Shown here one piece after another: positions 81 through 29,171 of a stretch of DNA of 64,000 bases. Below the pieces are notes generated by a model, which saw only the letters and a list, made by a program, of their open reading frames with translations, did no database searches and was not told the DNA's origin. The stretch is from Leucoraja ocellata (lineage: Eukaryota), in assembly GCA_036785375.1 (NCBI GenBank), contig JAWMAR010000033.1:7254001-7318000 (forward strand), read 5' to 3'. Position 1 is the first letter of the stretch; each line of letters starts with the position of its first letter. Position numbers and translations under genes: made by a program.

Positions 81-1251
81 GGCCGTGGTACCTTTGAGAT
101 AAGGGGAGGATAGCCATCCAGGGTTGTATTGTCATATTGATCTCTGCTGGAAAGTCCCATGCATGAATACCACATTACGACTGTGGAATGTGCCTTCGAT
201 ATCCTTCAAGGATTGATGCTTGATGACATTTAGTATCTTGGCAAAGAATGAACAAATTTCAATGGTAGAAAAGAGCAGTTCCAACAAATCTCAGCACAAA
301 CTCAATGAAAATTGTCAACAGGAAATTCCAGCTTTTCAATCATGGTAACAAAAAAATGTCTACCTCTATGCCACAATTCTCTACTGAAATCTTTTAATCA
401 ATTCAAATTAAATTTTCCAATATTGGAATAGATTTAAATTTTGTCAGCATTTAAATGCTACATAAAGTAAACAAGTACTTGTAGATTAGTTGATATCTGA
501 TTGCCTGCTACCAAAATCCGACAAAGACCTGACGCTTTAAGTGTTTCAAAAAGTGCACAAGCAATCAAGTAATGAATGCTGAAGGAATTTTTGATGCCTA
601 CAAATTTTACTTAACCAGAAGAGGTATTTTAGTAGACTTTCTCCTTCCTGTTCTATTTGACTCAGGAAACCATTCTCAGCAAGGAACATTGGGCAAAGAA
701 TTTGTTCATGAGTTGTGTGATATTTTTGCACACCACACTTTCTTGATTAGTACAGGTGTCAGGGGTTATAGGGAGAGGGTAGGAGAGTGGGGTTAGGAGG
801 GAGTGATAGATCAGCCATGATTGAATGGCGAGCAGATGGGCTGAATGGCCTAATTCTGCTCCTATCACTTATGAACTTATGCACTCAAGTGGCAACTCAG
901 ATTCTCGATGAAACCCAGTTCTGCAGAGGAAGTATTGTCACACCGAATATACAACTGGTCTGTATCCATGAGAAAGTTTATTGCCATGTATTCAGTTTAC
1001 CAGACTACTTAGTTTATTAGACTGCATTCAGATGGCTTTTGAGATGGTGCTGGAACAAAGTGACTCATTGCATGCTGACCCAAGAAGATTCACTCTCAGT
1101 GCTAAAGGCGTATTCTTCTCTGTGGTGGTAACTAAAATACAAACCGTACAACCAGTTTATAGAGTGCTTTCACTCACTGGTACACAAAAATGACGAGCAT
1201 CCAGAGACCCATAAAATGATTTATCCATCTCGCAATCTGACCTCTGTATGT

Positions 1252-1305
1252 GGGGTGGGAGATTGCAACCTGCACGTGGTCCATCCTGCTGTGACGAATG
1301 CAATC
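1252..1305 (+). ncRNA. Putative minimal HDV-like self-cleaving ribozyme
   Basis: P1 GGGGTGG/CCATCCT (G1.U wobble), P2 GATTGCA/TGCAATC, P3 ACC/GGT, 7-nt L3 TGCACGT, J4/2 CGAA, all in the canonical nested-pseudoknot order. Confidence 0.65.
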
Positions 1306-1377
1306 AACATGGCGTGCACAATCAAATAGAACAAGTTGTCCGACAACTTTAGGCTGTGCAAGCCATACGCAAGAAGA
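1252..1377 (+). mobile_element. Short non-autonomous retroelement with 5' HDV-like ribozyme fold and (AAG)n tail, copy 1
   Basis: Flanked by direct repeat GACCTCTGTATGTG (1239-1252 / 1376-1389); homologous to 56151-56290; ends AAGAAGA. Confidence 0.8.
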
Positions 1378-4300
1378 CCTCTGTATGTGATCTCCAACAG
1401 AAGCACAAATGTAAATTTGAGGAAAGGCACCTCATCTCCATTATCCAGCTTCCACGTCACACCATGAACAACTTCTAAATGTTCTACCACCATTCCGACA
1501 ACCATTTTCCCAAAGTATTCCTACTTTAAAAGGTGCAGATAGTTTTATGGTAACTCATGACTGATCTCATGTAGAAGAGCATGTGACAAATCAACATCTG
1601 GTTGCATGCTTCAATTATGGCAAACAAGTTTAAAGTTGAGATGCTCTCCGTTTTCTGCCCAATGGATGTAAGCGAGTCATACATCTTTCATAACTGTATT
1701 GGTTTACAGGGGCTATAGAAAAGGGAGCAGGCAGAAGCACTGCTGAGGAATGAGCATTTGCTTTTTCCAAAGAGCTCGTTTGATCTTTGGACCAGGAAAA
1801 ATTGGGAATCTTATTGTCAAGCAAGTTCCCCAAGTGACTCACATTTGCATTAGCCAGAAGAATGTTCCAGTTTCAAGTGATGAGGTTGGGTGGAGAACCA
1901 TATTAACCTGAAACAATCCTTTTATTATAGCATCTGGATATGGTGAGCATATTTCAAAAGTTTGCCAATACTTTTGTGTGGTCTTCTAATAGATCTTTTT
2001 GAGAGGGAGAATGAGCAGGAAACCTACTGCCAATGATTTCCATTCTCATGTCATAACGAGGTCACAAGAATGTGGTTCAATTTTCCAACTTGAAACTCAG
2101 CTGCACCATTTTGTAGCTCTAGTCCGTTAATTAAAGCACGAACACGGGTATAAAAGTGAAAACAATATATCCAATACACTTACCTGAATCTTCAGTTTTT
2201 ATGAGTTGGAATCTATTTTGATAAGCAATAAGGCTGGGAGTGACACCACCAATGAACTGTCAAGTAAAACTATCTACAAAATGATTAAACTAGAATGGCA
2301 GACAACACCACATTGTGATTAATTTGTTTTAATATTACATTTGAAATAAGCTTGAAATTCACCTAGCCTGACCCAAATCTAATGGTGCCACCACATTACC
2401 AAATACTGCAAAATCCCGCCCCCGCCCCCCACACAAAGATTGATGCTGGAAATCGGAAATAACAGAAAATAGTATTTCAAACAGCTTCTGTGGAGAGATC
2501 AAAAGTTTCCAAACTTTACTACACCTTTTGCACATTAAAGGCAAAACTTGGCTGATGGGGCTGACCATTTTCACTGCAAAGCTTGAGCTGGATCAAGAAC
2601 ATATTGGATGGTAGTGTACTTAATATCAATGCAGATGTCCAGGTGTAAACTCTAAACTCACACAATATGGTCGGTCCTGGTGGTGAAACTTTTACTTGAT
2701 CCCAAATCCATCATAGTATTAAGGAGATCCAAGTATACTCTGCTACCCTGCCTGACCTTGCCCTATACGGACAGAATTTCTCATGGACACGATGTAAAAT
2801 CTCTCTAGAGAACCTCGGCTCATATTTCGAGCTGCCTCAGAAGTAACCTCAGTGCCATTGCACTTTTAACACAAAATAAACTCTTGTACATACTGCCCTA
2901 ACACACTGGGCATTTCTACCTCTGCATTGGTGTTCTGCTCTGTCATCCAGTAGAGTTTGTCTATTCAAAGCTGAAGTGGGGTAGGTACATTTGGACAGGT
3001 GGGTGGGACTAGTGTAGATGGGGGCATGTCGGTCAGCAACACTGTTTCCACACTGTACAATTCTGAATTTCTCTGCACCTTAATGACATTGAGGTGAAAT
3101 TCAAATTTTTATAAAACTAGATTTTTTGAGATTCACCGTCAGGTAGAATTCATGCTGCTTCTATGTGCATTCAATGCTGTTTTTCGATTCATTAATTGCA
3201 GAGGGGATTGGTAAGTTAATGGAGTCTGATGGAAGGCTATTGACCTATAACATCAGTTGTTTTTTCTCTCCACAATTGCCACCAGTCCTGTTAAGTATCT
3301 TCAGCATTTTGTGTTTTTTTTTTTATTATAATTTTGTTGAATCCACTAAAAATAATTTTATTGGCACAAAATTTGCCATGGCAAAATACTGCCTGTTTGC
3401 CTCAGTAACTACAATCTGTGCTTCCAAGTTTTTTACTAGAGGGACATTAAGCATGCTTCTGACCGTGGGCTTAAAAGGTGACAGCTGCATCTGTGCGGTA
3501 ATAAAATAAGCAATCGAAAATTTCAATACAAGATTATAGTTACCCATGCTCGAGATGAGTAGTGGAGTGCTGGGTTTATCTTAAAGCTTTCTCCAGGAAA
3601 AAAGAAATAAAACTGACACTACTTTGACACCTAAGCAGAATCAGGATTAGAACGTCACACCCTGTACACATCTACATTTCACTGCCAAATATCCAACAAA
3701 GTTCTTTTGTTTTGGAGTTTGTAAAAAATAGCAAATATTTAATGAATGATCTGGTATAATGTTGCCATCTTGTGGCAGCAGTTAAAAGTACAAATGCAGT
3801 TTGGATCATGAAATAAAATTGTATTCTACATTAAAATGCAAACTTTTGGACCGAGTTTGAAGAAGGGTCCCAACTCAAAATGTTGTCTGTCCATTTTCCT
3901 CCACAGATACTGCCCCACTGCTGAATTCCTCTAGCAGTCTGTTTTTCACAAGATTCCGGCATCTATAATCTCAGTGTCTGTTAATTTTGGATGATGCTTG
4001 CTGAGAGAAGAAAGTCAATCAAGTCATAAAATATTTTATATGCTTCTTTGACAACTATTTTTTTTAAATCGCTTTTACATTATTCAGTTAAACAGGGATT
4101 ATTTGAAGGAAAACATGATGCTCAAATTTTAGGGTGGTGAAATCTTTTGCCTCAAGATGAGTTTTACCAACCAAGACAATCTATTTATTTTAACCATCGT
4201 CTTAATCCTGTCCTTCTACCACCAATCATGGAATGGAATCTTATGAAATACTCAAGTTCAAATGATGTGCAGTAGACTAGAGACTTTGTTCATTGGCATA

Positions 4301-5812: not shown

Positions 5813-7212
5813 CTAGTCCAATACAATACTTTTCCGGAGAGGTTCTTCCAACTCAAAAGCCCTCTCTCTGTTACATGATAGTGACCTTCGACGGAGTTTT
5901 CTCATTCTTGCCTGGAATGCAATTTTTCCATCAATATCTTCTGGATTTGATATGTTGCACTCCGATTCAATTAACCCAAATGATCTTCTGCGCATTGTAG
6001 TACTCTTGTTTCTTTTCTCCAAATGTTGAGGGCTGGTTACCTCTATCCATCTTAGTCCTTCCCTATTCATGCAACCAGACAGCCTGGAACTACGTCTCAC
6101 CTTCTTTTTAGATTTTGTATTTTGAAGAGCACAATCTGAATGTTTAATACAGGTTTCCGGTTGATTAACTGCCTCCAACATACTAGTGTTTATCTGCTCC
6201 AGAAAACAATGATCAGCAAAATTGAAAAGTAGAGATTCACTGTTGGCTGTATCCACCTCATCATCAATTTGATAGGGAACAGTTGGTTCAGCAATCCCCT
6301 TCCATGAAAGTCTCTTCCTTCTTTTCTTTCTTCCTGAGAGGTTCTCGTCTTTCTCTTCATTTTCATCTCCTGCATTGACCACATAACATCCATTAAACTT
6401 CAGGACCTGTTCTGATTGAGTCACATATGGCAAGTCTATTGCATGGAATAACTTGCTTTGTCTGCGGCTGGATCTGCTTCGAAATTCTTCCCGAGCTTCT
6501 GGTGGTGAAATAATATTTTCGTTAAAAACAGTAATATCACCTGTCACCGATTCACTTCTCGTTTCTTGAGACTTTTCAGATGCAGAGGCACCGATAGGAA
6601 TCAATTTCTCCATTTCATTTGGCTCAGTTTCCTCTCGTCTTTCATTGACAACTTCAAGAACATTTGATTCAGATTCCAAAAGAGAACCTGCACCACCGTT
6701 ATCATCAGTATTAATTATTTCAAAATATTCTTCATGCCCCGTCTCCATTTCACACTGCCCTTCAGATGGACTTTGCGTATCTGTTATTCCTTGTTGACTG
6801 CTTTTCATCAGAACAGGCAGTTTAGAAAAAGGTTTGCTTTTAATCTTTATTAAAGATTTTCCCTTTCTGACATCTTTGGCGACATTATCAGTCCATTTTA
6901 CTTCAAATGCCATGTCTTTCTTATTTTCACATAGAGAGGGTAACTGACTATTATCACATTTAAGATTGTAATCAAATTGGTTTAATCTCCTGGGCATAAG
7001 CCGATGATCTCCAGTATTCCCTTTCTGAGTTTCACTTTCAATATCTGATTGAATTTTCTGTTCCTTCTCAAAGCAGTGCACCGCTCCCTTCCGTGGTCTT
7101 CTTCGTCCTTGTGGTTTTTGCACAGCCGACTTCCTAAGGCTGCAACCAGGAGTCCATCCATTAGCTAACGACTCAGACTTGGACATTGAATGCCTTCTTC
7201 CTCTATCAATAC
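5813..7212 (-). CDS. CDCA2: CDCA2 terminal coding exon
   Basis: Acceptor TTCTACCAAACAG; long open frame to TAG at 5813; contains RRRSF, like the Repo-Man C-terminal histone-binding region. Confidence 0.85.
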
Positions 7213-10200
7213 CTGTTTGGTAGAAAACATAACAGTTGGGAAATGTTTTTAGAATTGCAATGTGGTGGCAGTAAAATATAAAGTTCAATAATTTAGCTCA
7301 CTTCCAGGTTTTTGATGTCGGACCAAATTAAGCAGAAAAGTAGGTAATGTAATGTAATGTTGTTAGTTTTTATATCTATACCAACAAACACCACCCTCCT
7401 GTACTTGGGGACATCCCATAACATTCAATCTGGCAAAGTATTTTCTTGCAATATTAATAACAAGTATTTTGTGTAATAAGTCTCCTGAACAATTCAAAAC
7501 TGTTTACTGAAAACAGAAAATTAACTTACAACACTGATTTGCTACTTCCAGAATAAATACACAACTTCAAGTTGTCCAAAATAGCAAATACAAAAGCATA
7601 AGGAGCGCTTGCAATTAACAAATGCATTTTAGCTCATGCAATTGTAATTTAATAACATTCAAGTAGCCAAATTATGAAGGAATTTTTCTGGCACGATGAC
7701 AATAATAAATTTCCTGATTTTTTCTCTAGCCATACAAAAGTGGGCAAATAACTTGAAGCAAAGACTTTCAACCCAGTGTATTCAAGATTTAAAATGCATC
7801 CATTAAAAACCCAATAGGATTACACAAAATATAATGCGGTTTGGATACCGTTGTGGTGTTGCATGTATAAATCTCTCACCAAGTTTAAAGGCAACACATA
7901 ATTTAGCTCAAAAGTTTTCCTTTTCTTTCCATTAGCTAACCCACCTGACAAACACTGTTTTTCCACAATTAAAAATGTCAATTAAGCATACTCAAAAATA
8001 AATCCAATTGAAAAAAAGGGTCACCACACCAAAGAGGATTTATAGGAATTTTGTATGAGAATAATATTCCAACATCAAATGAAATTACTTCACTATAAAA
8101 TGGCTCCGACCATTATACCTTTGATCAATTCACTTGCTTTATAGATTAGGTTGTTTCCCTTCCTGAAACGAAGGGACAAACCTTCATAACATGTATTCCT
8201 TTATGAACATAAAATGTTACTTACCCTCAAGATGAATCAGACTGGTTCTCTTTGGGGTTTCACATTCCAACATTCCTTCACTATTGGAGAAATCTGTTGA
8301 TTCAGACCAGATATCCAACACCTCTGCAATTGGGCTCAGTAATGGCTTCTTTGAAGCATATTCACGTTTTCCATAAAGGCTCTTCTTGAACTTTTGTTTA
8401 CACTTTCCTTTAGTTGCCTGCAAAACATTTTTGCCATTATAATTTCTATTCTCCTTTAATTTACTGTTAAATATGGAGATACGCAGTGATGCATAGCTGA
8501 TCCATGTAGTACCAGGACCCAAGTCGTCATTAATGTCACTAGATTTATTTACAATACATTGACAATGATGCAAGACTATAATGTTCAACGTTAGGCATGA
8601 CTCTGCGAGTAGCAGCCCATGGTCCAAAGAATCAAGAATTTAAGGACCACTTGACAGCACAACCATATCTCTTTCAGGCCGACATAAATAATAGCACTGA
8701 AGGATCATAGGATTATTAGATAGATGTCCAGAGCATCAAATGTTTAACTCGAGTCACCCTCGGCCCAGGTATAAGATTATATAGCTCCAATCAGAGAAGG
8801 TGGCAGCTCTTGTAGCACCCAGCCCAAGATCCATCCCTGAATACATAGCAGTTTCTTGCAGGATTTCACAATGAAAACTACCAACTACGATAAATTTAAG
8901 AATACATGGCTACAGTTTAAATGTATTATATATTTCATTATGCACTTTTAGATATTCTGAGAATATACAATGCACCATATATTAGTGGTATGTTATTTTG
9001 TTTCAACTTTAAGTGTTCACCTTTGTGCTTAGCTCAAACGCCACTTAACACAAACGCTCTTCTCTTTAAACGTTGCCAGCTTTGCAAACCTCAGAGAATT
9101 CCATGCTCCTCCAGTTTTAGACTCCCCCCCCCCCCCCCATTTTGCCCCCTCCAATGGTGGCCATGCCATTAACTGCAATGCTCTGGAAAGGACTTCCAGT
9201 AGTTGAAGCTGTGGCCATCATCTGATGATAAGTTTCAGTTAACTGGCCTGGAATATTCATTCATACTAAAAAAAAGGCCTTCAATTCAGTGGGTGAAATA
9301 TTATAGATTTTTTAAGAAATATCCTTACAGAATTTACACCAAATACAGAGGACACTGGTATATAGCACATTAATAAAATCCCAGTTTTATTGTATTCCTT
9401 CCCCTGAACCAAATCATTTACTAACAATGAAAACTTATTTAAAAGACAAAGTAACTGATAAATTAAAAATAATCCAAATGCAAGTGCTTACTGTAGAGTT
9501 CTTTGAAATATTCTTCACATTGCTCTTGATCCTACTAGACCTGCGGGGTTCTTCTTTCGTGGACTCATGGTCCCCTTTTCTAGTTTTCTGTGATTTTGTG
9601 GTTGGGTTCAAAATTACATCTGCATGAAGAGCTTTGTAGCATACATTTTTGTCTTCTATTTCATCTCTCTGTTCAGACAGATTCTCAATGTTGGGGCAAG
9701 GGTGTCCATTAAAATTAGTTTGCACCCCACCATTGCTGGAGTAATCAGGTTTTTTTTGACTGAGGTATACATCATCTGTTTTTGACATTTCAGTTGAGGG
9801 CAGGTGGTTCATATCAGATTCAACCATTGATTCTGCTTCTAATACAGTAGATTCCAACATAATAATTGCAGGAATACTTTTGTCAATGTCTGGTTGTATT
9901 TCTAACGGCTTCTTAGAATCTGGTTTCTTTTTGGTCAGACTTCTGCGAACTGTAGCAGTGCACTTCTTAGCATTTTTCCTCTTCCTCGGATGCCCAGAGG
10001 AACTGATTGGAAATGGAAGAGTTTCAGTCAGTTCTTCAATTTTCACTTCCAAAACCTTACACGGATAGTCATCATTTTTATTATGACACTTCCGATTATC
10101 TGGTCCAAATTTACATTCTGACAACGGAGATTCAATTTCAAAGTTGATAGATATTGGGTAACATCTGTCTTCTTCAACATTCTGTGTTCCAGCAGGACTA

Positions 10201-13200
10201 ATTCCCAGGTCATCTATTTCAAAAATTAAAGAAAAATTTTTAATCGACATATTTATGTCCAATATATTCCCTTTCCTTCAATGTTTTTTGGCATGCACCA
10301 AAGTCTCTTTGGAAGTTCTTGAAACAAAGTTCCATGGCAATTAGAAGCATTTCCTGAAGGATTCAAGCAAAATTGTTAACTTACGAACATAGCTAAGTGC
10401 CAGTATTTTCTAAGTCAGGACACATCATAGACCAGCCATACAATATTCTCTCATGCGGCACTTTATAGCTGAGGTCACCATAATAAAGAACAAACCCAAA
10501 TTTCTTCTCCTGCTAATCAAGGACTTTGAAACTAAGTGGAACAACTCAATTACTGCACTGGCTGAGATCAACTTACTACAAACCTGCAAAAATCAGGTTC
10601 AATCATGCACACATCAAGTGGTCACTGGAGAAGCTCATACTAATTACTTAAATGTTAAAATAATTACTGCTGAGTCATACTGTAACAAAATGTCAGTTCC
10701 CAACGTAATAGAAAAATGCTGGGAAACCAAAATTTCAATAAGTGAGTTCGGTATTCTGATAAATGCAAGGAATCATGGGATTTGTCAAAGGTCACTTGCT
10801 ATAAAGAAAAAGCAAATGAAGCGCTGGCTGAACAAACTGTGTATAAATTTGTATCTTTATTCATGATATATGTGTAAAATATAATTAATCTGAGGAACGG
10901 GGTTGTTGGGTAGCAGGAGAGTGAGGTGTAACAGCGAGAGAGAAGGGGCAGATGAGAGTGGGAGGGAGACTGGACCGGCAGGAGACATTCTCGGCTGCTG
11001 CGTGCACACAGACCCACACCTCATCTGTAGCCAGGATCGAACCCTGGTCCCCGGCGCTACAAGCATTGCCGAACCGTCACTCTACAATTTACCTGTACTC
11101 ACAATATTAAAAATTATCAGTGTTCAATTGTTTGCAACATTATCTTAGAAATTATTTTTCCAAAAGACAGAGGCATGCATAACACTAATTGGATATAACA
11201 CAACTAATGAATTAAGAAACACTATTTGTAATACGTGGGCTGAATTGGTCAGAATGCAATTTTGATCGACAACTAGAAAACCACCTAAAATACTTTGGAA
11301 AATGACAAGCAGGAAAAAAAAAGCCATCTTGGGAAAAAAGTAGTCTAGGGAGCTGCCATATAATTTCCCCACAGCAATCAGACACCATTAACTCTTAAGA
11401 ACATAGGCTGCTAGTTTTACCACAGGTTACAATGGTCATGGAACACTACAGCCACAAGAACAGGCCCTTCAGCCCCCAATGTCTGTGATAAACACTTTGC
11501 CTGCCCTCACAATATTTAACATTTTTAGCATTCAATTGTTTGCATTATGTTAGAAATTATTTTTCCTAGAGATAACACTAATTGGATATACCAAAACTAA
11601 CAAATTAAGAAACACTAATTGTATTATGTGGGCTGAATTGGTCATAATCTTAATAACGAACATGGAACAGTACAGCCACAAGAACAGGCCCTTCAGCCCC
11701 CAATATCTGTGCCAAACATGATGCCAAGACTATCACATCTTCCTGCATATACCCCATATCCCTGTATATCCGTATACCTATGTAAGTCTTTTAAATGCCG
11801 CTAACATATCTGCTTCAACCACCATTCGCAGCAGACACTCATCATCCTCTGTGTCAACAACTTGCCTCTCACATCTCCTTTAAACTTTGCCCCTCTCACA
11901 GAACTGCAGACTGAATACTGTCCTTCCACAATCCTGTCTTCTAGGAGTAAGCCATTTCCGAATCTATATGAACAAGTCACGATTAATCCAATTAAATCTT
12001 AATCTTCTGGATCAGCCTACCATGGGGGACTTGATCAAAAGCTTTACTAAAACCCATTTAAACATCCGCCACCCTATCATCATCGATCACCTTCACCTCC
12101 TCAAAAAAACATGATTGTCAGAGACACGTTCTAGCATGTACAAAGCCATGCTGATTGTCCCTAATTAATCCATTCTTTTCCAAATGGGAGTAAATTCTAT
12201 ACAGAAGAATCAGAATGTTTGGCACAGACAATGGGGGCTGAAGGGCCCGTTCTTGTGGCTGTAGTGTTCCAAGTTTGTTATTAATTCCTTAGGTTGCTTA
12301 AGCATCTTTAGGTAATCTGTTCCTCTATCTCCCGCTTGCTGGTGGGGGTGCTATAATACAATCCCGGTAGAGTGCTTCACTCCTTTATTTCGAAGCTCTA
12401 CATAAACCGTCTCCTATACCTCTTTTGCCTCCTTCTCGATCGCACCTAAACCATCGAAAGCCCACAAATTTGAGCTGCCCAGCGTTTCCCTCCCGCAACC
12501 ACTTCTCCCACATGGCCAGATCATGGATTTCGACATAGAAATGCTTCCATTGTCACTTGTGCAATGATACTCTATTAAACAATATCACATGGTGATATTG
12601 TTTTCCATACATTGCTTGTACATTCCATACATGCCATGCTTCCATTTTAACTTACTTAGCTATTAAAAACTTTTTCTTTAAAATCCTGCAATGAATCCTG
12701 CTATTGCGCATCTGAAAAACTCTAGCCCCTAAACCCCTTTCTCATTGACAACTGCTTTTAATAACGTGATTTTCTGCTATGCTTGATTTAAGCAGATTTT
12801 ACACACCTTCCAATATTGTTTGCAGTTTACTTGATGTCCTGTCACTGTGGTCCAGCACAGGGCTGCTTCCATTGCAAGTGACATCATCGGAAGGGCTCTG
12901 TTGTGGAAAGATTACATTGACTTGTCTATTCACTGATTCAGTAAAAGTGCGAAAGTCTTTGGAACACACAAAAGTACAATCATTTTGAAATAATTCAAAG
13001 CGGTAAGCCTGAATCCACTGCACTGATAAACAAGATATATTGTAAAAAGAATATTAAACCACAATCTTATATATTTTTTACAATGCGTCACTTCTGTTGT
13101 CGACAGGGACAGAAGTTTCACTTATCTGTTACTTTATACCTCCATTCCACGCAGACCTGAATGTGACCTTCTGCGCTATTCCAACGAGCCCCAGTATAAG

Positions 13201-16200
13201 GAGGAACATGTCCTTGTCTACCTTCCAAATAATATCAAATTCACCACGTACAGGTAACTCAATTTTTCCTGTTGTATTAGAACTAGCGTAGTTCAGGTGT
13301 ATGCAGAAATATTACGTTTTTCGCTTTCAGACACTGCCTGATCTACTGATTATTTCTAGCATTCTCCTTTTGACTTTAGATCTCACCCATAGCTCTGACC
13401 TATATTTTGCAGCTTTTACATATCCCCAATTGATTGTTCTCCCTTTAACTGCCCACATTAGTCAACCAGATAATTTCATAAAAAGTGAAAATCACTTCTG
13501 TGATTCCAACCTCATCCCATCATATTATTTTTGTCCTACCTAGCTCTCCCCACCCTCTGTAATGAAAAGATTATCTTGACTCTGATGGTTAACTTTTTTT
13601 TACTGCAGCTGCTATCCGACCTGCTGATGGTTTCCATCATTTTCCCACTTTTATTTCAGATATCCAGTTTGTTTATAATTGGCATCTTAAAGAATCAATC
13701 CGAATAAATTAAAAACAAAAAAAATAATACTTTAATACTTAATCCATTGACCAAAGACAAACACAGCTGGAAAAAAACCTTGCAAAGTGGGAACTTGGAT
13801 AACTAAAATTTTCCATAGAACACTGCCGTATTGCTATTTTATTTGCAGGCAGATGATGCGAGCCATTCATTTATGATGGTGGTAAAATATTTCTATTATT
13901 TGTCATTCGGAATTTTTAGTTTGAATGTTCCAAAATGTTAGATATGATTTTGTCTGCACAGTGATGTTTTTTTCAAAAAGACATGCAAAGATTGACCCAG
14001 TTACACTGATATAGAGAGTTCTGTCATGTATGTGAATAATGATAATGGTTATACATAAATAGCTTTGGGGACAGCTATAAAATGATCTTACTTCTCTGGA
14101 ATGCAGGATGACTAACAAGAATAAGAATAACTTCATAAACAGGTGGAAAAGTTTTAATTGATTATATCCCTTAAAAGCATCCATTAGAACTGTAAAATTA
14201 GATGGAGAAAAATGATCTATTTGAAAAATATGCTCTTGCCAACCGCACTTATACCCGAGTTAGCAGCTCTGAAATGTTCAAATAAAAATGAATCTATTAC
14301 AATATTGCATGAATAATATGAAATAACTAATATGGTTTGAATAACAACCACAATACGGTTAAGCAGCAACTGGACAGTCGTAGAATGAGAAGCAGTAATA
14401 CAAACAAAAAAAGTCAGATATGCAGGGAGATGTTAAGACGTTCTTGCATACTACAGTTCCAAATATTGTAATGTAAAAAAAAAAAAACAGAAACAGCAAA
14501 TGCAAGAAATTGAAAAAAAAAATGCTGGAAACACTCAGCAGTTCTGATACACTGCTGCTCGGGAATTTTGTCCTTCAAGACGATGGTTGAAATTCAGGAT
14601 GAATTCTTCATTACATTTTTTTTTTTTTGGCTATTCTTTTTTAGGTTTAGAAAATAATGGGCAGCATTTGTCAAAGTGTCTTATGTGCTCTCCCAGCAGA
14701 CACGAGATCTAATGATGTTCTCTTGCATTAAAGGGAAGGAGTATGTTGTAACCAAGACTACTTGCAACTGGTTTCCAGTTATATTCACAGACTGGTGATA
14801 TGTAGGCCAAGATTAAAGAGACATGGGCTTGCCTTCACAAAGGCGACTCATCATCATATGCACTTGATCCTAGAGGTTTCTTAGAAAGAAGCACTCAAGT
14901 GAAGATATTTCCTGTTTTTAAACACAGATACCAGGTATGCAATTATTGAAAAGGCAAAATGGATGCCAAATCACACAGATCCAAGAACAAGCCTTTTCTA
15001 TTTTCTCAAGTGCTTAATGTTGGTCTAATCACCTCTGCAATGGAATCTCAAAAACATAGCCCAAAATCTTTTAGTCTACTCAGGTTTTGCTGATATGAAA
15101 ATGAACCCTCAGCATTTTTCAAACAAAGCATTTTGCTGCTTATGACGATCCACTTTGTGAGTAAAACTATTTCCATTAGAGAGTAAGCAAATCAAACAAA
15201 CTCTAGTTGTCATAAGTGGGTAAACATGAGCAACAAGTCGGTAACAAGACAGATTGATGAGTGGTCGGAAGTGCACATTTTCATGGCTGTGGTACATCAG
15301 CACCAGCTCTTCCTCCACTCCACCCTGCCTTCCTACCTAACAAGGAAAAGGAGCAGGGTACAGATGTGAGGAGCCAATGGTGAGCATCACTCTTATGCAA
15401 CCTAGCAGCAGGTCAGAGCTCACTACACAACAGCAATGTGTTTCATTCAATGATGAGGAATATATGTAGGATTAATTTTAATAATATTGTTTTTCTTGCC
15501 CATAACATATGCAATTACATGCTAAGATGTAATATATTAATTTAAATTCCAGCAGATCCATCAATAGCTTCAGGTAGAATTTTACTGTAATCGGTCACAT
15601 GCAATGTTAAAGTTGAACTTTAAAGTAGCCATCTTAGCACCTTGGAGCTGCTGCGGGGTTACAAAAAAAAAATTTGATGATCTTTCTAACCAACAGTGTG
15701 ATTCCAAATACCTTTCAGCTTCATTTTTTTTTTAATTCTGGGATCCCACTTGTTTGATCAATCTGAACTCCCAATATGAATATGAATTACCGGAAAGAAA
15801 AGAAAAAGCAGGCATGTTTACCTTTTTCTCTTCCAGACACGTTTTGGTTTTTGCCCTTTGTTTTAGAGCAGAGGGAGGACTATCACTGAAAGTGATCTGC
15901 GGATGTACTGGCATTTCCCCTCTGCGTAGAGGTGTATTGGATGGTAACCTCTTATCAAACAGCTCGGGCGTCAGCTCTCCGCCAAAAGTCACCTTTTTCT
16001 TTTGTGTCAGTTTCCTGCAGCTTGTAGACAGAATGCAGTCTTGCTCCTCTGTAGGAGTAGAATCTAAAATACAAGAATTACAATAATATGTTCTTGCCTT
16101 AGCAAATCAACCAATTCCTAACCAAAGATTTTGTTTTGTAAAAGAAAGTCAGTGCCAGTGTCCAATTAAAGGCAACTGACAATATCACAGCAGGAACACA

Positions 16201-19200
16201 AAGATAGGTCAGAAGATTGCATGGCTGAAGGGATGGGCACTTAGGAGATTGGTTCAAAAGATTATGGCCCTTGCAATCCAGAGTAAGTTAGCACACAGAA
16301 CCCAAAACAGGCTTGGAAACAGAATGTTTTTTAAAAATGTGTTTGCAAATGGATGTCTATGATTAGTGGCATCCTACTAAGTAAAGAGGTCATTCTCTAT
16401 CGTTATAAAACCTTGATCAGACCTTAGCTGGAATACTTCCTGTATGCAGTTTTGGCCACAAGGCTTTAGGAAGGATGTGATAGCATCTTGGAATACACAT
16501 ACTTTCATTTGTATACTAACAACATCCATTAACAAATAGGTGTACCCAAGCACCATATCATGCATCCTCTACCTACCTATTTGCCATATACCAGAGAGGT
16601 GTGGCAGTTCTGGAGCAGAATTATTATTGTCATCCTGAAATGTGCCCATGAATGCTGCCATCTTACTTTTCATCATTGAAACTCTCTGAGATTCCTAATT
16701 TAAAAAAAAAAAAATCACACAATTATTTAATTAGTATAATTTAAAAAAAATTATTGGAGCATTGAGCAATAGTTATTATATACATATTATAATACAGATG
16801 AGTTTGTTGCTGTTCTTTTTCTACATTGTTTTCCAGACAACATAAACTGCAGAAGGAAATGGAGTAATTGAATTTCTAGCGATTATTCAAATGTACCTGC
16901 ATCTTCTGTTTGGCAATATAGCAAATAAGACTATTGGTCTCTGGGGATCCTCTGGCTCCAACAGAAGACACTCTCCGTGAGCATATTTTTCTCCCTTCAG
17001 AGAGTATTCCTGCAACACAAGTTTGGGAAAATATCAAGTAGATCTTGGGCAGCAAAATGAAGCAGCAGTCTTAACTTGATGTGTTATTTCAGAGACAAAA
17101 GGCCCAAACACAAACTTTCAAATTTGTCCAGAAAAGACATTGAAGGAGTAAGTACCCTTCCAATCAGTGATAATCAGTAATATGGTCACAAGGAAAGAAG
17201 ACGCACCTAAACAAAACATTGCAGATGGTTAAAAAAAAGTTATGTTTAAATTTTTAATTATTCAGCAAATTGTATAATTAGTGGTCCCTGTTGTGTTACC
17301 TTTGACAGATGAAGATCAAATAATCAAACAGAGTCATTAATATTCCCAGTATATAAACGTCTTTGAGTTTATAATCCTTAAATTTAAGAATGGAAATCTG
17401 GAGGACCATAAAACCAACAGTCTAGTCTGGCTTAGTTTTTTCTAAAGGACACTGCAGTGGAACGCTTCCTTTGTAAAATAAAATCTACCTGCTGTCTTAC
17501 TGGATGAGCAAGCACAATATTTGCAGTTTATTTTCTCTTTAAATAATTATTCGAGCGACGACTTCATAATCTACAAGTCAATAACATTATTATTGAGCTG
17601 ATTGTACTACAGTTCGTTTTAACCAAATAATTCCTTTCAAGGAAACATCTTAGAAATGTTCCAAAGCACTCATAGGTTTATTGGAAGGGTGATCAATTGG
17701 TGAAACAAAATGCTCACGGCACCATTAAAAACAGTTAAACAAATACCATTAATGAACTTCTCAACTAATTTTACACTATTATTGAATAGTAATTGCAGGA
17801 TTACAAGCCTTGTAATGTTGCAGTGTACAATGTTCAATGTCCTACATGGAAACAAAACTTTAAAATATTTATTACCAATAATAATGAACGCCTTTCTCAC
17901 CAGGGACTAACTGTACAGAACGTTTTTCCTTCTATTATTTATTACGTAAAATAATATGTGTGATTGTGTTTAGAATTTGTTTGGTTGTTTTGTTGTTCCG
18001 TGAGCATTGCCACTTTCATTTCACTGCACATCTCGTATGTGCATGTGACAAATAAACTTGACTTGACTTGACTTGATTGAATATCCAAGCCCAGGTAACA
18101 TTCAGAACAAGGAAACCTTGCAGTGCAAATGACCTTACTCTCATCCCAAATAACACAATCCAAGGACAAGATCTGTATTTTTTTTCTTACTTCAGATCAG
18201 TATTTTACTACCTGCTGAATTCAGGCTAAACGGTTCTGCTGTCATTTTCCACTGATTTGCAGCATTCATTGAAATATCCAGTGAAGGGGGTGGTGTTTTT
18301 GTAGCACAGGATTTGGATTGCTCCTTGTCCACATTCACTAAGCAGTCATGATGTCGATATGCAGTATTTTCAGAATCAATCTCGCTGATAGTATCATAGT
18401 CACCAGGTGTTGCTGGAAAGGAAGTCCAGGTCTCACCATCTCCACCAATTGCTTGAACTGTGGGTTCGACAGAAGAAAAAAGACAACCAATCTTTACCAA
18501 CCACTACAGATGGTGTGAACAAATTTAAAAAGACCGTTACCAGGTAAAAACAACTTCAATAAATTAAAATGTTTACATAATAGAAGTTGTGGAATTGTGT
18601 TCAAAGTTCGGCCATAGCCTTTATTAAACTGCAAATGAGCATAATGAAAATTGGCCACTATACCACTCGGATAGGGAGGAAGAGGTGGGAAAAAGAGATA
18701 ATGCTGCTATACATTAGTGTAACTTCTACAAATACATGTTTGGTAAAGATAGGTTAGAATCAACAGGAGCTCTCTGTAGCAAAATAACATTCAAATGCAC
18801 TGCATAGTATTTTAACTGAGGATACTTAGGGAAAGTTTTTGAGACGACTGATGCCCAAGTAAGAGCATCCCGATAAGATTCAGCAAGCTCCAGATGTTAG
18901 GAAAGATGTATAGGTAATCGGGTTTCATCCAATTCGTTGATACCCATTTATTTTCAGAATTTTCACCACCCCTATTTTACAGACCAGCTCCCCCCATTAT
19001 CCCACCAACCTACCCGGCTGTTCCTTTAATGAGGGCATTTCATCTTTCAGCTATGTTCTTGGTGTTCATCGTATTGTAAGCGTGCATGCAAAACTCTACT
19101 CTTATTGAAAATGCAATTAGATCGATACAGTTTACCTTCAGTTTCCCAAGTAGCAGATTTACAAGGAAAATTAGGTGGTGTTCTGTCTTCAGAAGGTGTT

Positions 19201-22200
19201 CGGTCTTCAGAAGGCAAGTCCAATTCTGTGGGTGTTATAACTGGCACATCCACATTGGCTGTTTCACAGGTTTCTTCTTGATAGGCAGACAATTGTACTC
19301 CAAGCTGAGAGTTCACTAGTTTGGTGAATTTCAACATTTTCCTTTCATTTAAAGTTTGCACAGGACTGTGCCTATTATTTGTAACTGATGGATGTTTAGG
19401 AGAGAGCTGGTCTGTTGTTTGATCTAGGTTTTCAACTGATGATAATTTTATTTCACGTAAAGTACCAGCTCGTGATTTCCTTTTACCTGTTAATAAGGAA
19501 AGTTATTTCTTTACATTACTAACAGCAATTGCAATAAATTAATTGAATAGTTATTCCAACATCTTTGATCACTTGACTGCCAGTAATTTACTGCACTTTA
19601 AAACATGAAGGCTTTGCACAAATGCACGTTTTTTATACAGTATTAACAATATTGAAGAGTTGGATTTTCTTTGCATAAATGAAGTGTTGCTAAAATAGTA
19701 CATGCTTTTAGCTAGATAACATTTGGACAACAATCTGCAGCCTTGGACTCTTAACCAGAAGTGGAAACACTGGTACCCTACAGCGCAGCTTAGCTTAGAG
19801 AAAACCCATTAAGGAAACATGCAGAGGCTGCCTGTGAGTGATAGTGCTGTCAGTGCAGTTGTTCAGCATTGAGATGCAGGGCTGAAGACGAACCCCTGCC
19901 AACGCGCGCATTTACTGGAGAGCAGCAGCAGATGCTTCAGATGTTGCTAAATCGCCCAAATCCAACGGTCTCTTTCATCATGTCCTGTTGGGTATGGTAG
20001 AAGCAACGGTTGCTTCCTCTGTTTGGCTGCACATCTCTCCCCAGCCTGGAGATTTTCCACGGTAACAAACATAATGGTGGTTGATGGCCATTGAGGTTGT
20101 CAGAGATAGATTCCGTGGGCTGGGGAGAGATGGAGTGCCATACAAATAGATGAGAGGTGGCTGCGGGAGGTAAAAGCCAGCAGGGGCTGCAGGTCATGGT
20201 GTTGGAACATGGGATAGTAATGAACTAAATACTACCTTTGATTACTTTCAAAAGGAGCTGATGAGAGAGATTGTAGGATTTAGACAGTCAATCATAATGG
20301 AGCAGGTACTACTGCCCAAGCCCATCAAATACCAGCCCTCTCATTGCTTCTATAGAAACGTAGAAAATAGGTGCAGGAGTAGGCCATTCGGCCCTTCGAG
20401 CCTGCACCGCCATTCAATATGATCATGGCACCACTCCTACTATGACTCATTCCACACCAGGCCGTAGAAGTGGTAACCTCACAAATCAGCTCATTGAGGC
20501 AGGAGCACCAGCAGAGGGCCAAGCCTTCGATCAGTTGCCGGCAGTGTTGTGCACCATCAGGGAGGTAGGTGTCCACACCAGGCTCCCAACACATCATTGC
20601 AGTCAGTGGCTGATTTCAACGATCACTTAGTGCTGATTCCACTGACTCTCTAGTTCCCAAGAATGAGTGGGTAGTCTAAGGAGTTGGGACCAATGAGAAA
20701 TGTATTTATGCAGAGACTGTAAATCTTTGCAATTCTATTCCTAAGGGGGCACTGGATGCTCAATTGTCGTATATATTCAATTAAGGGGGAAAGCATATTT
20801 CTCTACATTGATATAAGAGGATATGGGAACATTGTGGACTTCAGATACATAAGCCACGATATTGAATTCAGATCAAACTGCTGCCTGGCCTATTCTTACT
20901 TGGATTCTTATGAGCTTACCAGGTACATTCCTCCTTGCTCTTCTTTCCTTGGGGTGAGGCACTTGCAATATAAAATCCTTCAAATGTAAAAATAATACAT
21001 TAAAATGTACTCCAAACAAATACCACTATGTGTTTAACAACTACCTCATGTTCTCACTTGTTTGCAACTGTAAAAGGTACAAGGGCGCAGGAAACAACTC
21101 AATGTGAAGACACTGAATGCTCCATTCATTATTACAATGCAGGAGGCCATTCAGCCCATACTAACAGAAACAAGGCAATTAATAAATGTTAGTATTTGCT
21201 CTCATATACATGATTAAATATGTCAATGTTTGATATATAAAATATTATACACAAACAGCCCTTGGATAGGATTTGTACAATTATCTGCCCATACCTGTAA
21301 TAATTTGGGCACAACAATTGCAATGAAACTGTTACCTGTCTTCACGCTTCATTCCGATTGAATACCTTCAATATGATATTCATTCTTGGAGCGTTCTAAT
21401 GCCAGTTCCCTGAAAACCATATTTTGGTGATATCAGCAGGTTGGAAAATAGTAGGCAAGCCCAAGCTTGTTCTGGTTTAAACCATCAAATTCCCTATCTC
21501 TGTACCAATCAACAATGTGATTAAGAATACAGAAATAGGTAGTGAAAAAGGCCAATTTATTTTCCTATCACTAGCCCGGATACCCTGAAAATCATTATGA
21601 CCAGATAGAGAACATTAGGCTCAGCATATACCAGGGATGATGAACCATGGAAAACCTCAAATCCTATGGTGTGCATTGCTCAGTACCATCATAGTAATGA
21701 AGCTACTCACAGGCTCAATCTTTTAATAAAGACTCAACCTTTAAAATCACTCATTTAAAAAAAAAAAAAAGACATACCTGTTCTGCTACATATTTGGCAG
21801 ATCCTAAAGTCAAGTTTTCAAAATTCTGGTCCTCAAACCTGCACAACCAATTAAACAAAAATAAGTACTTTTTAAATTAAAAATCAAAGTAACCTAAATT
21901 CTAAAACAAAACTTCAAATCTTTCTGCTGCATCTGTCACTTTATCAGGTAAACCAAACATGTTGGACCTCCTTAATCCTCAACTATCCATGCAATTTCCA
22001 AGATGATTAGCAGCATCATTGAAAACAAAATGGCAATGACTTTGGATGAAGAAATAACAGATTTGTAGATAAACTGCTTAATCTACAGTTCTTTTTTTGT
22101 GTATGATCAAGATAAAACAAAAATGTTTTTGGCTATTTGTTCAACTTCAAAGCAAATCCTGACTATTTGATATCCACAAACAATATATAAAGTTTTTGTG

Positions 22201-25200
22201 CAAGCCTTCAGGTTTCTACACCCAAGGAATCAAGCACATTGCCTACTTTATGGCAGCAACCAACTTCAGTTATTTGATGAGGCCAAGAACAAACTCAAGA
22301 ATTGCTCAATTTGGATCAGAATTGCCATCTCAAATCGGTAATTACATCATTTAGACAAGTCTCTACCTGTTATTTGCATCACTAAACACGAGAACCTATG
22401 TTAATTATGAAAAGATGTGTAGTTATTACCTGTCAGATTCACTTAAAGTTGTAATAAATGTTTTCATCAGGTTAACATCACATACATTTCCATTCAAAGG
22501 TGCAGCATTATTTAGATTTTTTGAATTCACCTGGAGAAAGGTAAATATAATTTATTAAAAGGTAAATCTGATATCACTTTCATCACTATTTAACAAAGTA
22601 TTCATTTCTCGCATATTGTTATTTAGCCAGAATACCCAATATCTTAAAGTTAATAGAAACCAACGCAATTGCACCAATTTTCCTTCTAATCATTGTTCAA
22701 AATTATTGCTAAAAGAATCTCATAATATTGCATTACAAGCGAGTTTCTTTTTTTAGATTAGTCCATTGTTACAGAATGTATGCAAAATAACAACAAAATG
22801 GGTTTCTTATCAACACATCAAAATCAAACACCATCTTTAAAACATAGAATACATTTCATTCTAGCCTTTATCCACCCATTCAAGGTTTGGTGACTACAAG
22901 TGAGTAAAATACAAAGACAAACATTTATAAAAGTTTGAAATATTATGCTTAATTACAATCCTACTTCAACTGCTCTTTTGAAGTAGACCAAGTCAGATAT
23001 AGTCATTTTGAATTAGCATTGAAATAGTTGCGAGCAGTAGGCTTTCAATGATAAGATAAATTTGAAAGACTTTTTGAAAATTTGAAACCCATGTTATAAC
23101 ACATGGGTTGAAGCATTCACTGCTCCCTATAATAAACATATAGTTATTTTTGCATAACTACACTGTACATAGCTACCACCTTCCTTATACGTTAATGTCA
23201 ATGTGAACAATACCCATGTCTAACCTTCCATCTTGCAATATCTGGAAAACAAATGCAACTACAAATATTTCAAATCTGTTTTACACAATAAATAATACCT
23301 AACAATCATTTTTCACTCATTATATTTTACTGTTTATCATTCATGTAAACAGAATCAATCTATCTAAAAATCAGCACCAGGATCATACAAGTATTCTTCC
23401 ATTCAATATCACCTCTTGCTCTACAAATATACGTTAGTATAAGCATTTAGTCACAGTGGCAGCAATACTTACTTCATTGTTCTCATACATTTCTAATTGG
23501 TAATGTTCTCCTGCCAAATCAATGTCCTTGGTGATCTCATCAAATTTTGACCCCCTTTAAAAAAAAAGGCAGGTGGGAAATGATATTCACAATAGTATGC
23601 AATACATCAGATATGCCAAACTTTATCTAGAATCAATATCCTCACCGGCTTACATTGTTAACTGCAATGTTCAGTGCTGAAACTATCTGCACATAGGAGG
23701 AGGAAAATAAGTCAAACTGACAAAATGTCAAAAGTGGTTGGTAGACAATGATTATCTGCTGGATCTGACATCATTGGCACTCAATAAAAAAACCTCAATG
23801 GGGATAAACACAGTAGGTGCCATTAACATTCTTCGCTTCCAAATTTAGTCTCCACATGGCAACATTCGTCTGATATTTCAAACCAGGACGATATTGGAAC
23901 ACAAATGAATATTAAAATGTTCTATTCAACGGCAAAAGCTGCTGACGCTGGAAAGATAAAGGAAAAAAGTGCTTTCAAAAACTGAGTTTAAAGCTTTGCA
24001 AATTTTATGGCCAATATTTCTCTGTCAGTCAGCAGCGAAACAAAATTGGCCATAAAACTGCAGAAGCAGTAATTTTGTGCAAAATAAATAGGAGAAACTT
24101 GTGCCTAACATGCAAATAATTAATTAATCATTAATGATGCACTGTGTGATACATATAAGATTTACCTAAATAATTTTAACTGAGAACTTATTTTGGGTGC
24201 CGATGAGTAGTACAACGTGGAAAAATTGAATCACTCTTTCAGTACAAATTGCTGTAATTAACAAAGATCATATACGAGGTTTAAAAGTTTTGATTTCAAA
24301 TTATGTAACCTGCATAACATTTTTATTTATCCCACAATATAATTTTCACACGTGCACACATGTCAAATGTTGAAAACAAGATTAACATAACTTAATCCTT
24401 CCAGTCAAGATGATGTTGGGAAGGGATATTTCAGGATTTAGGTGCAATGATGAGTGAGGAACACCAATACATTTCCAAGCCAGGATGACGTGTGCCTTGG
24501 ATGCAACCAAGAGATAGTTGAGATTCCTCCTACATGCTGCCCTCATCCGACAAAGAAATCTGACCTGAAATGTTGCCTGTCCATTTTCATAAGGTGTGAA
24601 AACGATCAAAGCAGACAATGATCATGGAGGAAAAGACACAAAATGCTGGGGTAACTCAGCATCTCTGGAGAGAAGGAATGGATGACATTTTGGGTCGCGA
24701 CCCTTCTTCAGACTGAGTCATGGAGGGGAGACTAGGGACATGATAGGGTTAGGTGTGAAAACAGATAAAAGCAGATGATGATAGAAGAGGCCCTAACTCG
24801 TATCTCCTCGGAACACCGCAGCTCCGCTCTTGCTCCCCTTCCCCCCAGTCGCAAAGGAGATAGTCCCCCTAAGTCCTCACGTTTGACCCCATCGGTTGTC
24901 GCATACAGCACATTTTCACCGCCTCCAACAGGACCCTACCGCTAGCCACATCTTTGCAGCTCGACCCCTTTCCAGAGACAGTTTCCTCTGCAACTCCCTG
25001 GTTAACTCATCCCTTCCCACCCAAACCACCCCACCCCTACACATGCACTTTCCCCTGTAATCACAGAAGATGCGACAACTGTCCCTCCTCCCTCGACACC
25101 GTCCAAGGACCCCGACAGTCCTTTCAGGTGAGGCCGAGGTTCACTTTCACTGCCTCCAACCTTATCTACTGTATCCACTGTTCCAGGTGAGGGCTACTAT

Positions 25201-26991: not shown

Positions 26992-27345
26992 CCTTCACAG
27001 CGGGCCGTCCGTCCGCGCATCGGGCTCCCTCGGATGTAAACACGTTAAAACAGCCCACCAAAGTCCTCCGGAGAGCCGGCGGCGAGGCGACGGTCCTGTG
27101 GCAACTGGGCCCGGCGCTCATGTGCCGTCAATCGCGGTGGGGGAGGGGGCGGCAGTTGGTGGCCGCGTCACGTGGGTTCGGTTTGAATGCGGCGACGCGC
27201 GCCCTGACTGGCGCCTCCCCGTGCGCGCGCACGCCCGCCCGCTCCAACTGGCGCCTCCCCTTTGCGTGCGCGCGCCCGCCCTGACTTGCGTTTCCCCGTG
27301 CGCGCGCCCGCGCCCCTCCCCTTCCTCACCAGCCCGCATTGACAA
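26950..27345 (-). promoter_or_regulatory. CDCA2 CpG-island promoter with CHR-like element, E-box and GC/E2F-like repeats
   Basis: CpG-dense; TTTGAA at 27182-27187; CACGTG at 27169-27174; three related ~40-bp GC units at 27202-27322. Confidence 0.7.
26963..26991 (-). CDS. CDCA2: CDCA2 putative first coding exon (MDERTVGAR)
   Basis: In CpG island; Kozak AGGATGG; donor CAG|GTGAGC; phase 2 joins in frame to 23554. Confidence 0.5.
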
Positions 27346-27350
27346 ATGCA

Positions 27351-27790
27351 GTCACGGTGGCGCAGCGGTAGAATTGCTGCCTGACAGCGACGAAGACCCT
27401 GTCCCTATTACTAACCCATTATTTGTTATTTGCACTTTATCAGTTTATTTATTCATGTGTGTATATATTTATATCAATGGTATATGGACACACTTATCTG
27501 TTTTGTAGTAAATGCCTACTATGTTCTGTGGGCTGAAGCAAAGCAAGAATTTCATTGTCCTATACAGGGACACATGACAATAAACTCACTTGAACTTGAA
27601 AAGACCCGGGTTCGATCCCGGCTGTGGGTGCTGTCCATATGGAGTTTGTACGTTCTCCACCGTGTTTTGCACGGATTTTCTCTAATATCGTCGGTTTCCT
27701 CCCACACACTCCAAAACAGACAGGTTTGTAGGTTAATTGGCTTGGTAAATATTAAAAAAAATTCTCCCTAGTAGGTGTAAGATAGTGTTT
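27351..27790 (+). mobile_element. tRNA-derived V-SINE (HE1-like) interrupted by a LINE 3' fragment
   Basis: A box TGGCGCAGCGG, B box GGTTCGATCCC, V-domain GGAGTTTGTACGTTCTCC; insert 27400-27600 bounded by AAGACCC duplication. Confidence 0.8.
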
Positions 27791-27863
27791 AAATTGCGAC
27801 TTTGCATATGTCCCTCCTAAACGTATGCGACAACTAGTGATGGTGATTATACGTCAAGATACA

Positions 27864-28200
27864 GATAGATACATAGAAAATAGGTACAGGAGTAGGCCAT
27901 TCGGCCCTTCCAGCCAGCACTGCCATTCAATATGATCATGGTTGATCATCCAAAACCTGCACTCCCGTTCCTGCTTTCCCCCCCATATTCCTTTGATTCC
28001 TTTATCCCTAAGATCTAAATCTAACTCTCTTGAAAACATCCAGTGAATTGGCCTCCACTGCCTTCTGTGGCAGAGAATGCCAGAGATTCACAACTCTCTT
28101 GGTGAAAAAGTTAGTCCAAAATTGCCTACCCCTTATTCTTAAACTGTGACCCCTGGTTCTGGACTCCCCCAACATGGAGAACATTTTTCCTGCATCTACT
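27864..28200 (-). mobile_element. CR1/HER1-type LINE 3' fragment
   Basis: Reverse-strand ORF2 C-terminus-like sequence (..GESRTRGHSLRIRG.., VV.LWHSLPQKAVEA) plus the characteristic tail. Confidence 0.8.
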
Positions 28201-28204
28201 CTGT

Positions 28205-28690
28205 GGTAGAGAAAGAATGGGTGACGTTTTGAGTTAAGACCCTTCTTCTGACCGGTTAAACTGATCCCTAATCAGTCTGAAGAAGGGTCTCAACCCAAAA
28301 TGTCACCCATTCCTTCTCCACAGAGATGCTGGCTGTCCCACTGAGTTACTCCAGCTTTTTGTGCCCATCTTCGGTTTAAACCAGCATCTGCAGTTAACTT
28401 CTGACGCAGTGACTACCTACCTGATCCCCCAGTTGCTAAACACTTTATGTGTAAGGAGGAACTGTAAATACTGGTTTAAACCGAAGGTAGACACAAAAAG
28501 CTGGAGTAACTCAGCGGGACAGGCAGCATCTCTGGAGAGAAGTAATGGGTGACGTTTCGGGTCGAGACCCTTCTTCAGACTTTCAGGTCGTGAATTCTCT
28601 TTCCCATTCCCACACTGACTTTTCTATCCTAGGTCTCCTACATTGTCAAGAGTGAAGCCAAATGCAAATTGGAGGAACAGCATCTCATAT
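28205..28690. repeat. Penelope-type pseudo-LTR copies and GIY-YIG C-terminal fragment
   Basis: Inverted terminal-repeat pairs; 28600-28690 reads SHSHTDFSILGLLHCQ..KCKLEEQHLI. Confidence 0.75.
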
Positions 28691-29171
28691 GGGGCAAGGA
28701 GGGAAAGATAGATCGGCCATAATTGAATGACATTACACTGACTGTGCCCCCAACTGCTCTTTTATAACACTTTAAACCTATACCCTCTAGTTATAGACTA
28801 TTTATATCCGAACAGCAAAAGGCCATTCTGCTCCTTGAAGCTCTCCCGTATCAATTACTTTATGCACGTGATCTTTTTGTGTTATTCTAGAAAGGCATGG
28901 TCAAACTCCTGCCTTTGTTACATTGGAGTGGTCTGGACATAAAATAAACTCTGTAAGCTAAGGATAGTTACAAAAAACAATTTCCAAGGATAGATTTATT
29001 TAATAATATAGTATCGTCATTAAAGTTTATCTTATTAACATGTTATTTTGCACTTCTTTATTTTGCATTACTCATCCAATGCTAAATGTATTCACTTTAC
29101 TGGAGGCAAGGTCTATTTGATATGAGGGTGGGAAACCCTGAGATTTGATGGTATATCCCTGTAAGAAACTT

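Follow-up and report, generated by a model that had tools for sequence, protein, structure and literature searches.

A short skate retroelement built from both ends of an apparently Vingi-type LINE and headed by a predicted HDV-like ribozyme

Described relatives of the skate element

Ribozyme-headed, internally deleted long interspersed nuclear elements (LINEs) are an already known architecture. Bipartite internally deleted LINEs include NARTc, RIME and the R2 short internally deleted elements (SIDEs) (PMC5786205, PMC3185411, PMC3414825), and ribozymes like that of hepatitis delta virus (HDV) head L1Tc/NARTc and the R2 SIDEs, cutting at +1 (PMC3185411, PMC3414825). Here we describe a short retroelement in a stretch of 64,000 nucleotides (nt) of the skate Leucoraja ocellata (assembly GCA_036785375.1, contig JAWMAR010000033.1, positions 7,254,001 to 7,318,000 of the forward strand), which is called the window below. 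A decayed copy of the family lies at 1252-1377 of the window, and its first 54 nt have the layout of an HDV-like ribozyme. The element consists of the first ~77 and the last ~41 bases of an apparently Vingi-type LINE, and we consider it probable that its predicted HDV/CPEB3-type head frees the RNA just before the first base of the element (G1), and that it is retroposed by the LINE protein.

The NARTc, RIME and SIDER elements (with L1Tc/ingi and Pr77/L1TcRz; PMC3185411, PMC4035085, PMC3383444) of trypanosomatids are likewise short and non-coding, with about their first 77 nt common to an I-group LINE. The NARTc type also resembles the skate family in an HDV-like ribozyme with a one-pair P1.1 and a cut site at +1, and in dispersed insertions with duplications. 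The skate family differs from NARTc in its vertebrate host, its apparently Vingi-type parent without RNase H, its 54-nt fold without P4, its length of 126-140 bp and its presence at what appear to be tens of thousands of places. The Drosophila R2 SIDEs (PMC3414825) are also minimal non-autonomous retroelements in which a ribozyme is joined to the 3' end of a LINE, but they are described as rare and confined to rDNA, whereas the skate family is dispersed, abundant and probably reliant on a LINE with an apurinic endonuclease (APE). Vingi 5' and 3' ends joined by internal deletion are reported for the Vingi-1_EE derivatives, SINE2-1_ACar and SINE2-1_AMi (PMC5786205).

Two further ribozymes are comparable in the fold. 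The CPEB3 ribozyme (RF00622; PMC8233481) agrees with the skate family in the register of nt 1-38, in L3, in G37-U38 and in the CGAA of the majority copies, but it has other stem sequences, possesses P4 and is a single intronic copy; the heads of sister Vingi-type elements are far closer to it than is the short skate family. Minimal HDV-like/theta ribozymes (PMC10879173) share with the skate fold the lack of P4, the size of ~50-55 nt and the catalytic C at the first position of J4/2, and the P4-less forms are reported as active. They are described almost only from gut phages, often beside tRNAs, whereas the skate fold heads a vertebrate retroelement with no tRNA near. The literature that we searched gave no earlier Vingi parent, vertebrate host, P4-less 54-nt fold, such abundance or CPEB3 link for this architecture, though Repbase, Dfam and patents lay outside the search and may describe them; the combination of Vingi and CPEB3 returned only a false match to Tvingi.

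The skate family and its predicted ribozyme fold

In the assembly of 3.44 Gb, a 16-mer of the head, a 32-mer of the core and a 20-mer of the tail gave 11,074, 5,953 and 4,110 exact matches, against 1, 0 and 0 for their controls. The head 16-mer was present in 44 of 90 loci picked by the tail, and the tail 20-mer in 4 of 30 loci picked by the core. These co-occurrence fractions suggest that the family occupies about 20,000-30,000 genomic places. Nine stretches of 10 kb, taken without selection, yielded no member of the family.

The 5' ends were judged on 90 of the 100 listed tail matches, which were chosen by the tail alone. The assembly lists some loci twice, and after merging of 8 loci 82 independent ones were left; 30 loci selected for full-length likeness were excluded from these counts. 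The element starts at nt 1 in 55 of the 82 loci and at nt 1-4 in 70, and the other 12 are truncated further. These starts agree with the original note, made from the sequence of the window alone, in which the predicted cut site of the ribozyme is the 5' boundary of the element. A target-site duplication, mostly of 10-12 nt, is present at 60 of the 82 loci, and in 46 its end is at most one base away from G1. Exact duplications accompany 27 clean heads; in 21 of these the duplication directly adjoins G1 without extra letter, and a single added G was found in none.

In the window copy, all pairs form in P1 (1252-58/1281-87, 7/7), P2 (1261-67/1299-1305, 7/7) and P3 (1268-70/1278-80, 3/3), with L3 at 1271-77, a P1.1 of one pair (C1273-G1288) and J4/2 at 1295-98. 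The nested double pseudoknot of P1, P2, P3 and P1.1 is present, and the candidate catalytic C1295 stands first in J4/2, followed by N-A-A. The G1 wobble at the predicted cut site coincides with the insertion boundary, which serves as a proxy for the RNA 5' end. The tiny retroelement between direct repeats of the original prediction is thus confirmed with all its segments, and so is, at the level of pairing, the HDV-type nested-pseudoknot order.

Six heads from four families, taken from metagenomes and from the same genome, could be aligned without gap over nt 1-38. In this alignment 97.2% of the cells pair and double changes occur at 10 of 18 pairs; the covariation is 0.678, against 0.234 in shuffled alignments (0 of 500 reach the observed value) and at most 0.122 in slid controls. 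G1, C22-G37, C44, A46 and A47 are invariant in all six heads. The proposed check of P1/P2/P3 by covariation therefore succeeded between families; within the family it was uninformative, because the family is young. Changes among the copies are mostly CpG decay. The J4/2 C, expected to be conserved, is kept in 75 of 83 copies (the remainder being mostly CpG decay) and in 6 of 6 cross-family heads. The common head variants at nt 8 (J1/2), nt 32 (U-G or U-A pair) and nt 45 (CGAA or CUAA) all preserve the fold.

Most copies have U-UUCG-A where P4 would be, and private changes of the window copy at nt 21, 33, 38, 40 and 41 abolish this small UUCG cap. G21-C38 of the window copy was considered as a compensatory pair; it is private (1 of 20 G21 copies) and was treated as chance. 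We also observed a variant of ~78 nt at L403 and L405, which have the same flanks, with the head almost directly joined to the last ~20 nt within one duplication. At L431 and L432 (G000:C1:19261000-19280000 and 19408000-19432000), copies with intact heads lie inside a tandem unit of ~1.95 kb, which has the look of a duplicated genomic piece with many other repeats in it. Cleavage at these heads would turn an RNA reading through the array into monomers.

The parent LINE and its relatives

Reads at the window locus showed a recurring different sequence joined to the tail, which led to the parent LINE, an element of ~3.1 kb with one open reading frame (ORF) in the same genome. A 22-mer of the ORF end gave 505 matches (control 0), and the LINE copies are 5'-truncated. 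The LINE and the short element share the first ~77 nt and the last ~41 nt, the ORF ends within the shared ~41 nt, and both LINE ends were found inside one duplication at L221, L222 and L224. An autonomous-type LINE sharing both ends, as the original prediction envisaged, thus exists in the same genome, and the idea that the element borrows a reverse transcriptase (RT) through its 3' end is supported by the shared 3' end. The claim of no tRNA head also holds, the head being wholly the LINE 5' end with no tRNA in the window. The name of short interspersed nuclear element (SINE) fits in part: the family is large and retroposed, but it has no tRNA, 7SL or 5S head, and because both ends come from the LINE it is a bipartite internal-deletion LINE derivative and not a Pol III SINE.

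The LINE protein has N-terminal APE and RT domains (Pfam) and a C-terminal Cys/His motif. No RNase H was detected in the LINE by tblastn, in a search that did pick up 10 Nimb loci from this genome, and none appeared in the Pfam result of the closest homologue, P0001. The homologues are single ORFs of ~1000 aa on contigs of 3-4 kb, and they form one clade with 100% SH-aLRT, separate from Nimb and CR1-like rows, in a quick RT tree whose rows contain no named Vingi, Ingi or RTE protein. Judged from its sequence, the parent appears to be a Vingi-type LINE of the I group, which fits Vingi as described in PMC13708176, where Vingi lacks RNase H, unlike Ingi. The name rests on L277, which belongs to the same clade as the parent and has a head matching by eye the printed 5' end of Vingi-2_Gav. 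Nothing pointing to RTE was seen in the parent, in a tree without named RTE rows. The lead towards an R2-derived element failed, as the parent has an N-terminal APE and dispersed insertion sites in place of the restriction-like endonuclease and rDNA-specific insertion of R2. We found no solved Vingi structure.

No LINE copy seen reaches upstream of G1, inverted 5' pieces included. Such inverted pieces, with the inner junction at head nt 1-16, are present in many LINE copies (L116, L129/L147, L138/L139, L148, L151, L177, L204, L210 and L218), a pattern to be expected if twin priming ran to the end of the RNA. An ATG at nt 47-49 (J4/2-P2') shares the reading frame of the endonuclease in L221, and also, with stops or shifts, in four further LINE copies (L223, L235, L236, L239). 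So the LINE ORF may begin within the ribozyme.

Nimb/I-type LINEs, obtained by a PF14529 search, were rejected as parents: they have (AAG)n tails too, but no blastn similarity to the element. Two such families (L091, L092, L093) have an open ORF2 of 1246-1268 aa and (AAG)n tails and are apparently young. A decayed protein of the eel Synaphobranchus kaupii, P0050, agrees at 424 of 494 positions (86%) with the residue that is most frequent in the skate LINE (loci L141-L240), while a skate CDCA2 exon, of a fast-evolving gene, has 30-42% identity to its shark orthologues. The likeness of the eel and skate LINEs suggests horizontal transfer between teleosts and skates, or contamination.

The relatives of the parent point to CPEB3. 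To our knowledge, the mammalian CPEB3 ribozyme has had no relative outside mammals so far. L277, a full-length metagenome relative of Vingi type seen together with L278 and L279, has an (ATC)n tail and, by eye, a duplication abutting G1, and its head (L277:3117-3189) reaches 55.6 bits with RF00622 (cut-off 35, E 7.9e-15). In the skate genome, 56 of 59 scored candidates exceed the RF00622 cut-off. The top 20 loci (L433-L452, G000) represent at least three further families with CPEB3-like heads, for example L437:1512-1585 and L449:1512-1575; one of these families heads a Vingi-type ORF, and L452 is CPEB3-like even in P4. Compared by eye with the CPEB3 consensus of Rfam, nt 2-74 of the printed Vingi-2_Gav (supplement of PMC5786205) agree in 38 of 40 positions as far as the base of P4 and in 14 of 14 at the 3' end. 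This identity likely reflects descent rather than convergence, because stem letters are free to vary in the fold. The sister Vingi-type heads therefore likely indicate where the mammalian CPEB3 ribozyme came from. Nine other metagenome relatives had no Rfam ribozyme match, and their folds were read by eye. Vingi-type heads that look HDV-like by eye, with no Rfam match, were seen at L242:~420-530, L267:~3370-3440, L270, L271 and L313; one of them has a long L3 insertion and one an apparent 6-bp P1.

Proposed mechanism, rival explanations and genomic setting

The proposed mechanism is modelled on L1Tc/NARTc (PMC3185411) and the R2 SIDEs (PMC3414825), and it builds on the observed family and its boundaries, the LINE-derived ends, the LINE domain layout, the pairing of the fold and the cross-family covariation. 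A copy would be transcribed in sense inside a longer host RNA, and the predicted pseudoknot would fold and cut just before G1, releasing an uncapped RNA. The Vingi-type LINE protein would then bind the 3' end of this RNA, and target-primed reverse transcription would copy it into a new site. If the RNA is cut at G1 and copied whole, each full copy would regenerate the ribozyme. Cleavage, read-through as the source of RNA and mobilisation in trans by a Vingi-type LINE are likely in our view. The 3' part of a majority-type copy folds well (z -3.99) through a 10-bp stem, nt 60-69/114-123, with one strand from each LINE end and one mismatch in the LINE; the predicted stem would hold the two LINE-derived ends together.

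Several results weigh against this mechanism. The expected match to HDV-like Rfam models did not come: the window copy has no ribozyme match, and the better copy L010 reaches 19.5 bits with RF00094 (cut-off 50, E 0.85) and 14.7 bits with the second HDV-type model (cut-off 44), though the Rfam HDV and CPEB3 models include P4. A topology descriptor written for this purpose is satisfied by 39 of 90 copies, and its controls are not clean. The covariation alignment has six related rows, of which a single family supplies three, and these same sequences were the source of the structure. Nested folding of whole copies is ordinary (z 0.02, -1.63 and 0.15), as given by a program that cannot form pseudoknots. 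Non-CpG divergence, 3.4% in nt 5-54 against 6.5% in nt 55-108, speaks for the mechanism, but subfamilies and the indel-rich alignment of nt 68-90 may inflate this contrast. Every LINE copy seen is broken, with a longest open piece of 314 aa among loci L141-L240, and the 5' ends of the LINE copies are ragged (nt 1, 2-3, 3, 4, 7, 8, 9, 10, 13, 43, 64), unlike those of the short element. Four runs guessed to be RNA contain family contigs, which tell neither starts nor levels, and contigs of such runs extend upstream of G1 (loose ends: X20, 26; X19, 6; X23, 6). Both DNA and read-through RNA that was not cut would give such contigs, which are compatible with cleavage or with none.

The sharp start of the element, which also counts here, would be compatible with an internal promoter too. 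The head might be dual like the trypanosome Pr77, the ~77 nt being an internal Pol II promoter and the main RNA source, and the ribozyme only trimming, protecting or aiding translation of the 5' end. We regard this as unlikely, though as the likeliest of the alternatives. The shared 5' piece of ~77 nt exceeds the 54-nt fold, as in L1Tc/NARTc, where 77 nt hold promoter and ribozyme (PMC3185411, PMC3383444), and the ATG at nt 47-49 in the endonuclease frame is in its favour. Its weak counterpoint is the 5' junction, where none of the 27 exact cases has an added G; capped RNA often leaves an added G at L1 insertion 5' junctions. Quite improbable is a fold that was inherited from Vingi heads and lost catalysis with P4, being kept either because the LINE protein binds it or because it stably caps the 5' end, with the sharp end otherwise caused. 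The Rfam scores below the cut-offs agree with it, as does P4 itself, shrunk to a 5-nt link against 15-25 nt in sister families. However, C44, A46, A47, C22-G37 and the G1 wobble are retained in the LINE and the short element alike, J4/2 is either CUAA or CGAA, which are also the forms that the consensus lines of HDV and CPEB3 show in Rfam, and P4-less ribozymes are reported to cleave (PMC10879173).

We give next to no credence to the view that an ordinary short repeat shows the fold by chance. Loose descriptors do match random DNA, at a rate of about one per 50-60 kb of strand: when A, G or T replaced the catalytic C there were 7 matches over six strand scans of the 64-kb window, and the A form matched in 31 of 90 family copies, which we take to be the same fold with its register shifted by one base. 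Because the control letters also match, the descriptor is not decisive alone, even though its form with C matched once in the window, at 1252/1295, and in none of 5000 shuffled versions of the 79-nt region that kept the dinucleotide content. Stronger support comes from G1 being the insertion boundary and from the covariation, and chance is already contradicted by stems that show compensatory changes across four families from a single LINE clade.

The features of the window are collected in Table 1. Both boundaries of the window element are ambiguous, since the 14-nt duplication has one base in common with the start of the element (G1) and two with the tail (microhomology). Five long LINE copies contain no stretch of more than 9 nt that matches the junction piece, and the hairpin at 1333-1349 is specific to the short element. 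A second copy is present in the window, and its G1 pair is broken. No Rfam family was found in the window at the gathering threshold. The first element lies ~4.4 kb beyond the last coding exon of CDCA2, on the opposite strand; the exon at 5816-7216 has 99% identity to a Leucoraja erinacea protein. Contigs of runs X1 and X6 bridge the 5' junction of the window copy, so the insertion is common to organisms A and C, and no empty-site contig for this locus was found in four runs. The window copy is a decayed passenger and not a master copy.

Table 1. Positions of the retroelement parts and other features in the window
Feature	Position	Strand	Remark
Left target-site duplication, 14 nt	1239..1252	+	last base doubles as element G1
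P4-less HDV-like ribozyme fold (predicted), 54 nt	1252..1305	+	equals parent LINE nt 1-54
Remainder of LINE-derived 5' part (LINE nt ~55-77)	1306..1329	+	1311-1320 pairs with 1355-1364
Short junction, without single-piece counterpart in LINE	1330..1340	+	hairpin 1333-1349 formed with 1343-1349
LINE-derived 3' end: last ORF codons, stop codon 1350-1352, short 3' UTR, (AAG)n tail	1341..1377	+	
Right target-site duplication	1376..1389	+	first two bases common with tail
CDCA2 exons	5816-21876	-	
Dense family of short repeats bearing inverted repeats	24600-62000		
Exon, which we take to resemble DEAD-box helicase	38407-38955	-	
ORF, presumably Myb/SANT-like	58830-59276	-	
Second copy, LINE-like subfamily, J4/2 CUAA	56151..56289	+	11-nt duplication 56140-56150 / 56290-56300

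Vingi-1 is being engineered for gene insertion (PMC13708176). If the skate head cleaves, the family would give a definition of the RNA needs of a Vingi protein in 130 bases. It would also be a natural eukaryotic P4-less HDV-like ribozyme at tens of thousands of vertebrate loci, and each copy would be a possible cut site when transcribed in sense. HDV-like ribozymes are probably the standard Vingi 5' end, which the skate lineage would have shrunk to a working 54-nt P4-less enzyme heading one of the smallest retroelements known, and the CPEB3 ribozyme would be a domesticated head of Vingi-2 type that landed in a CPEB3 intron.

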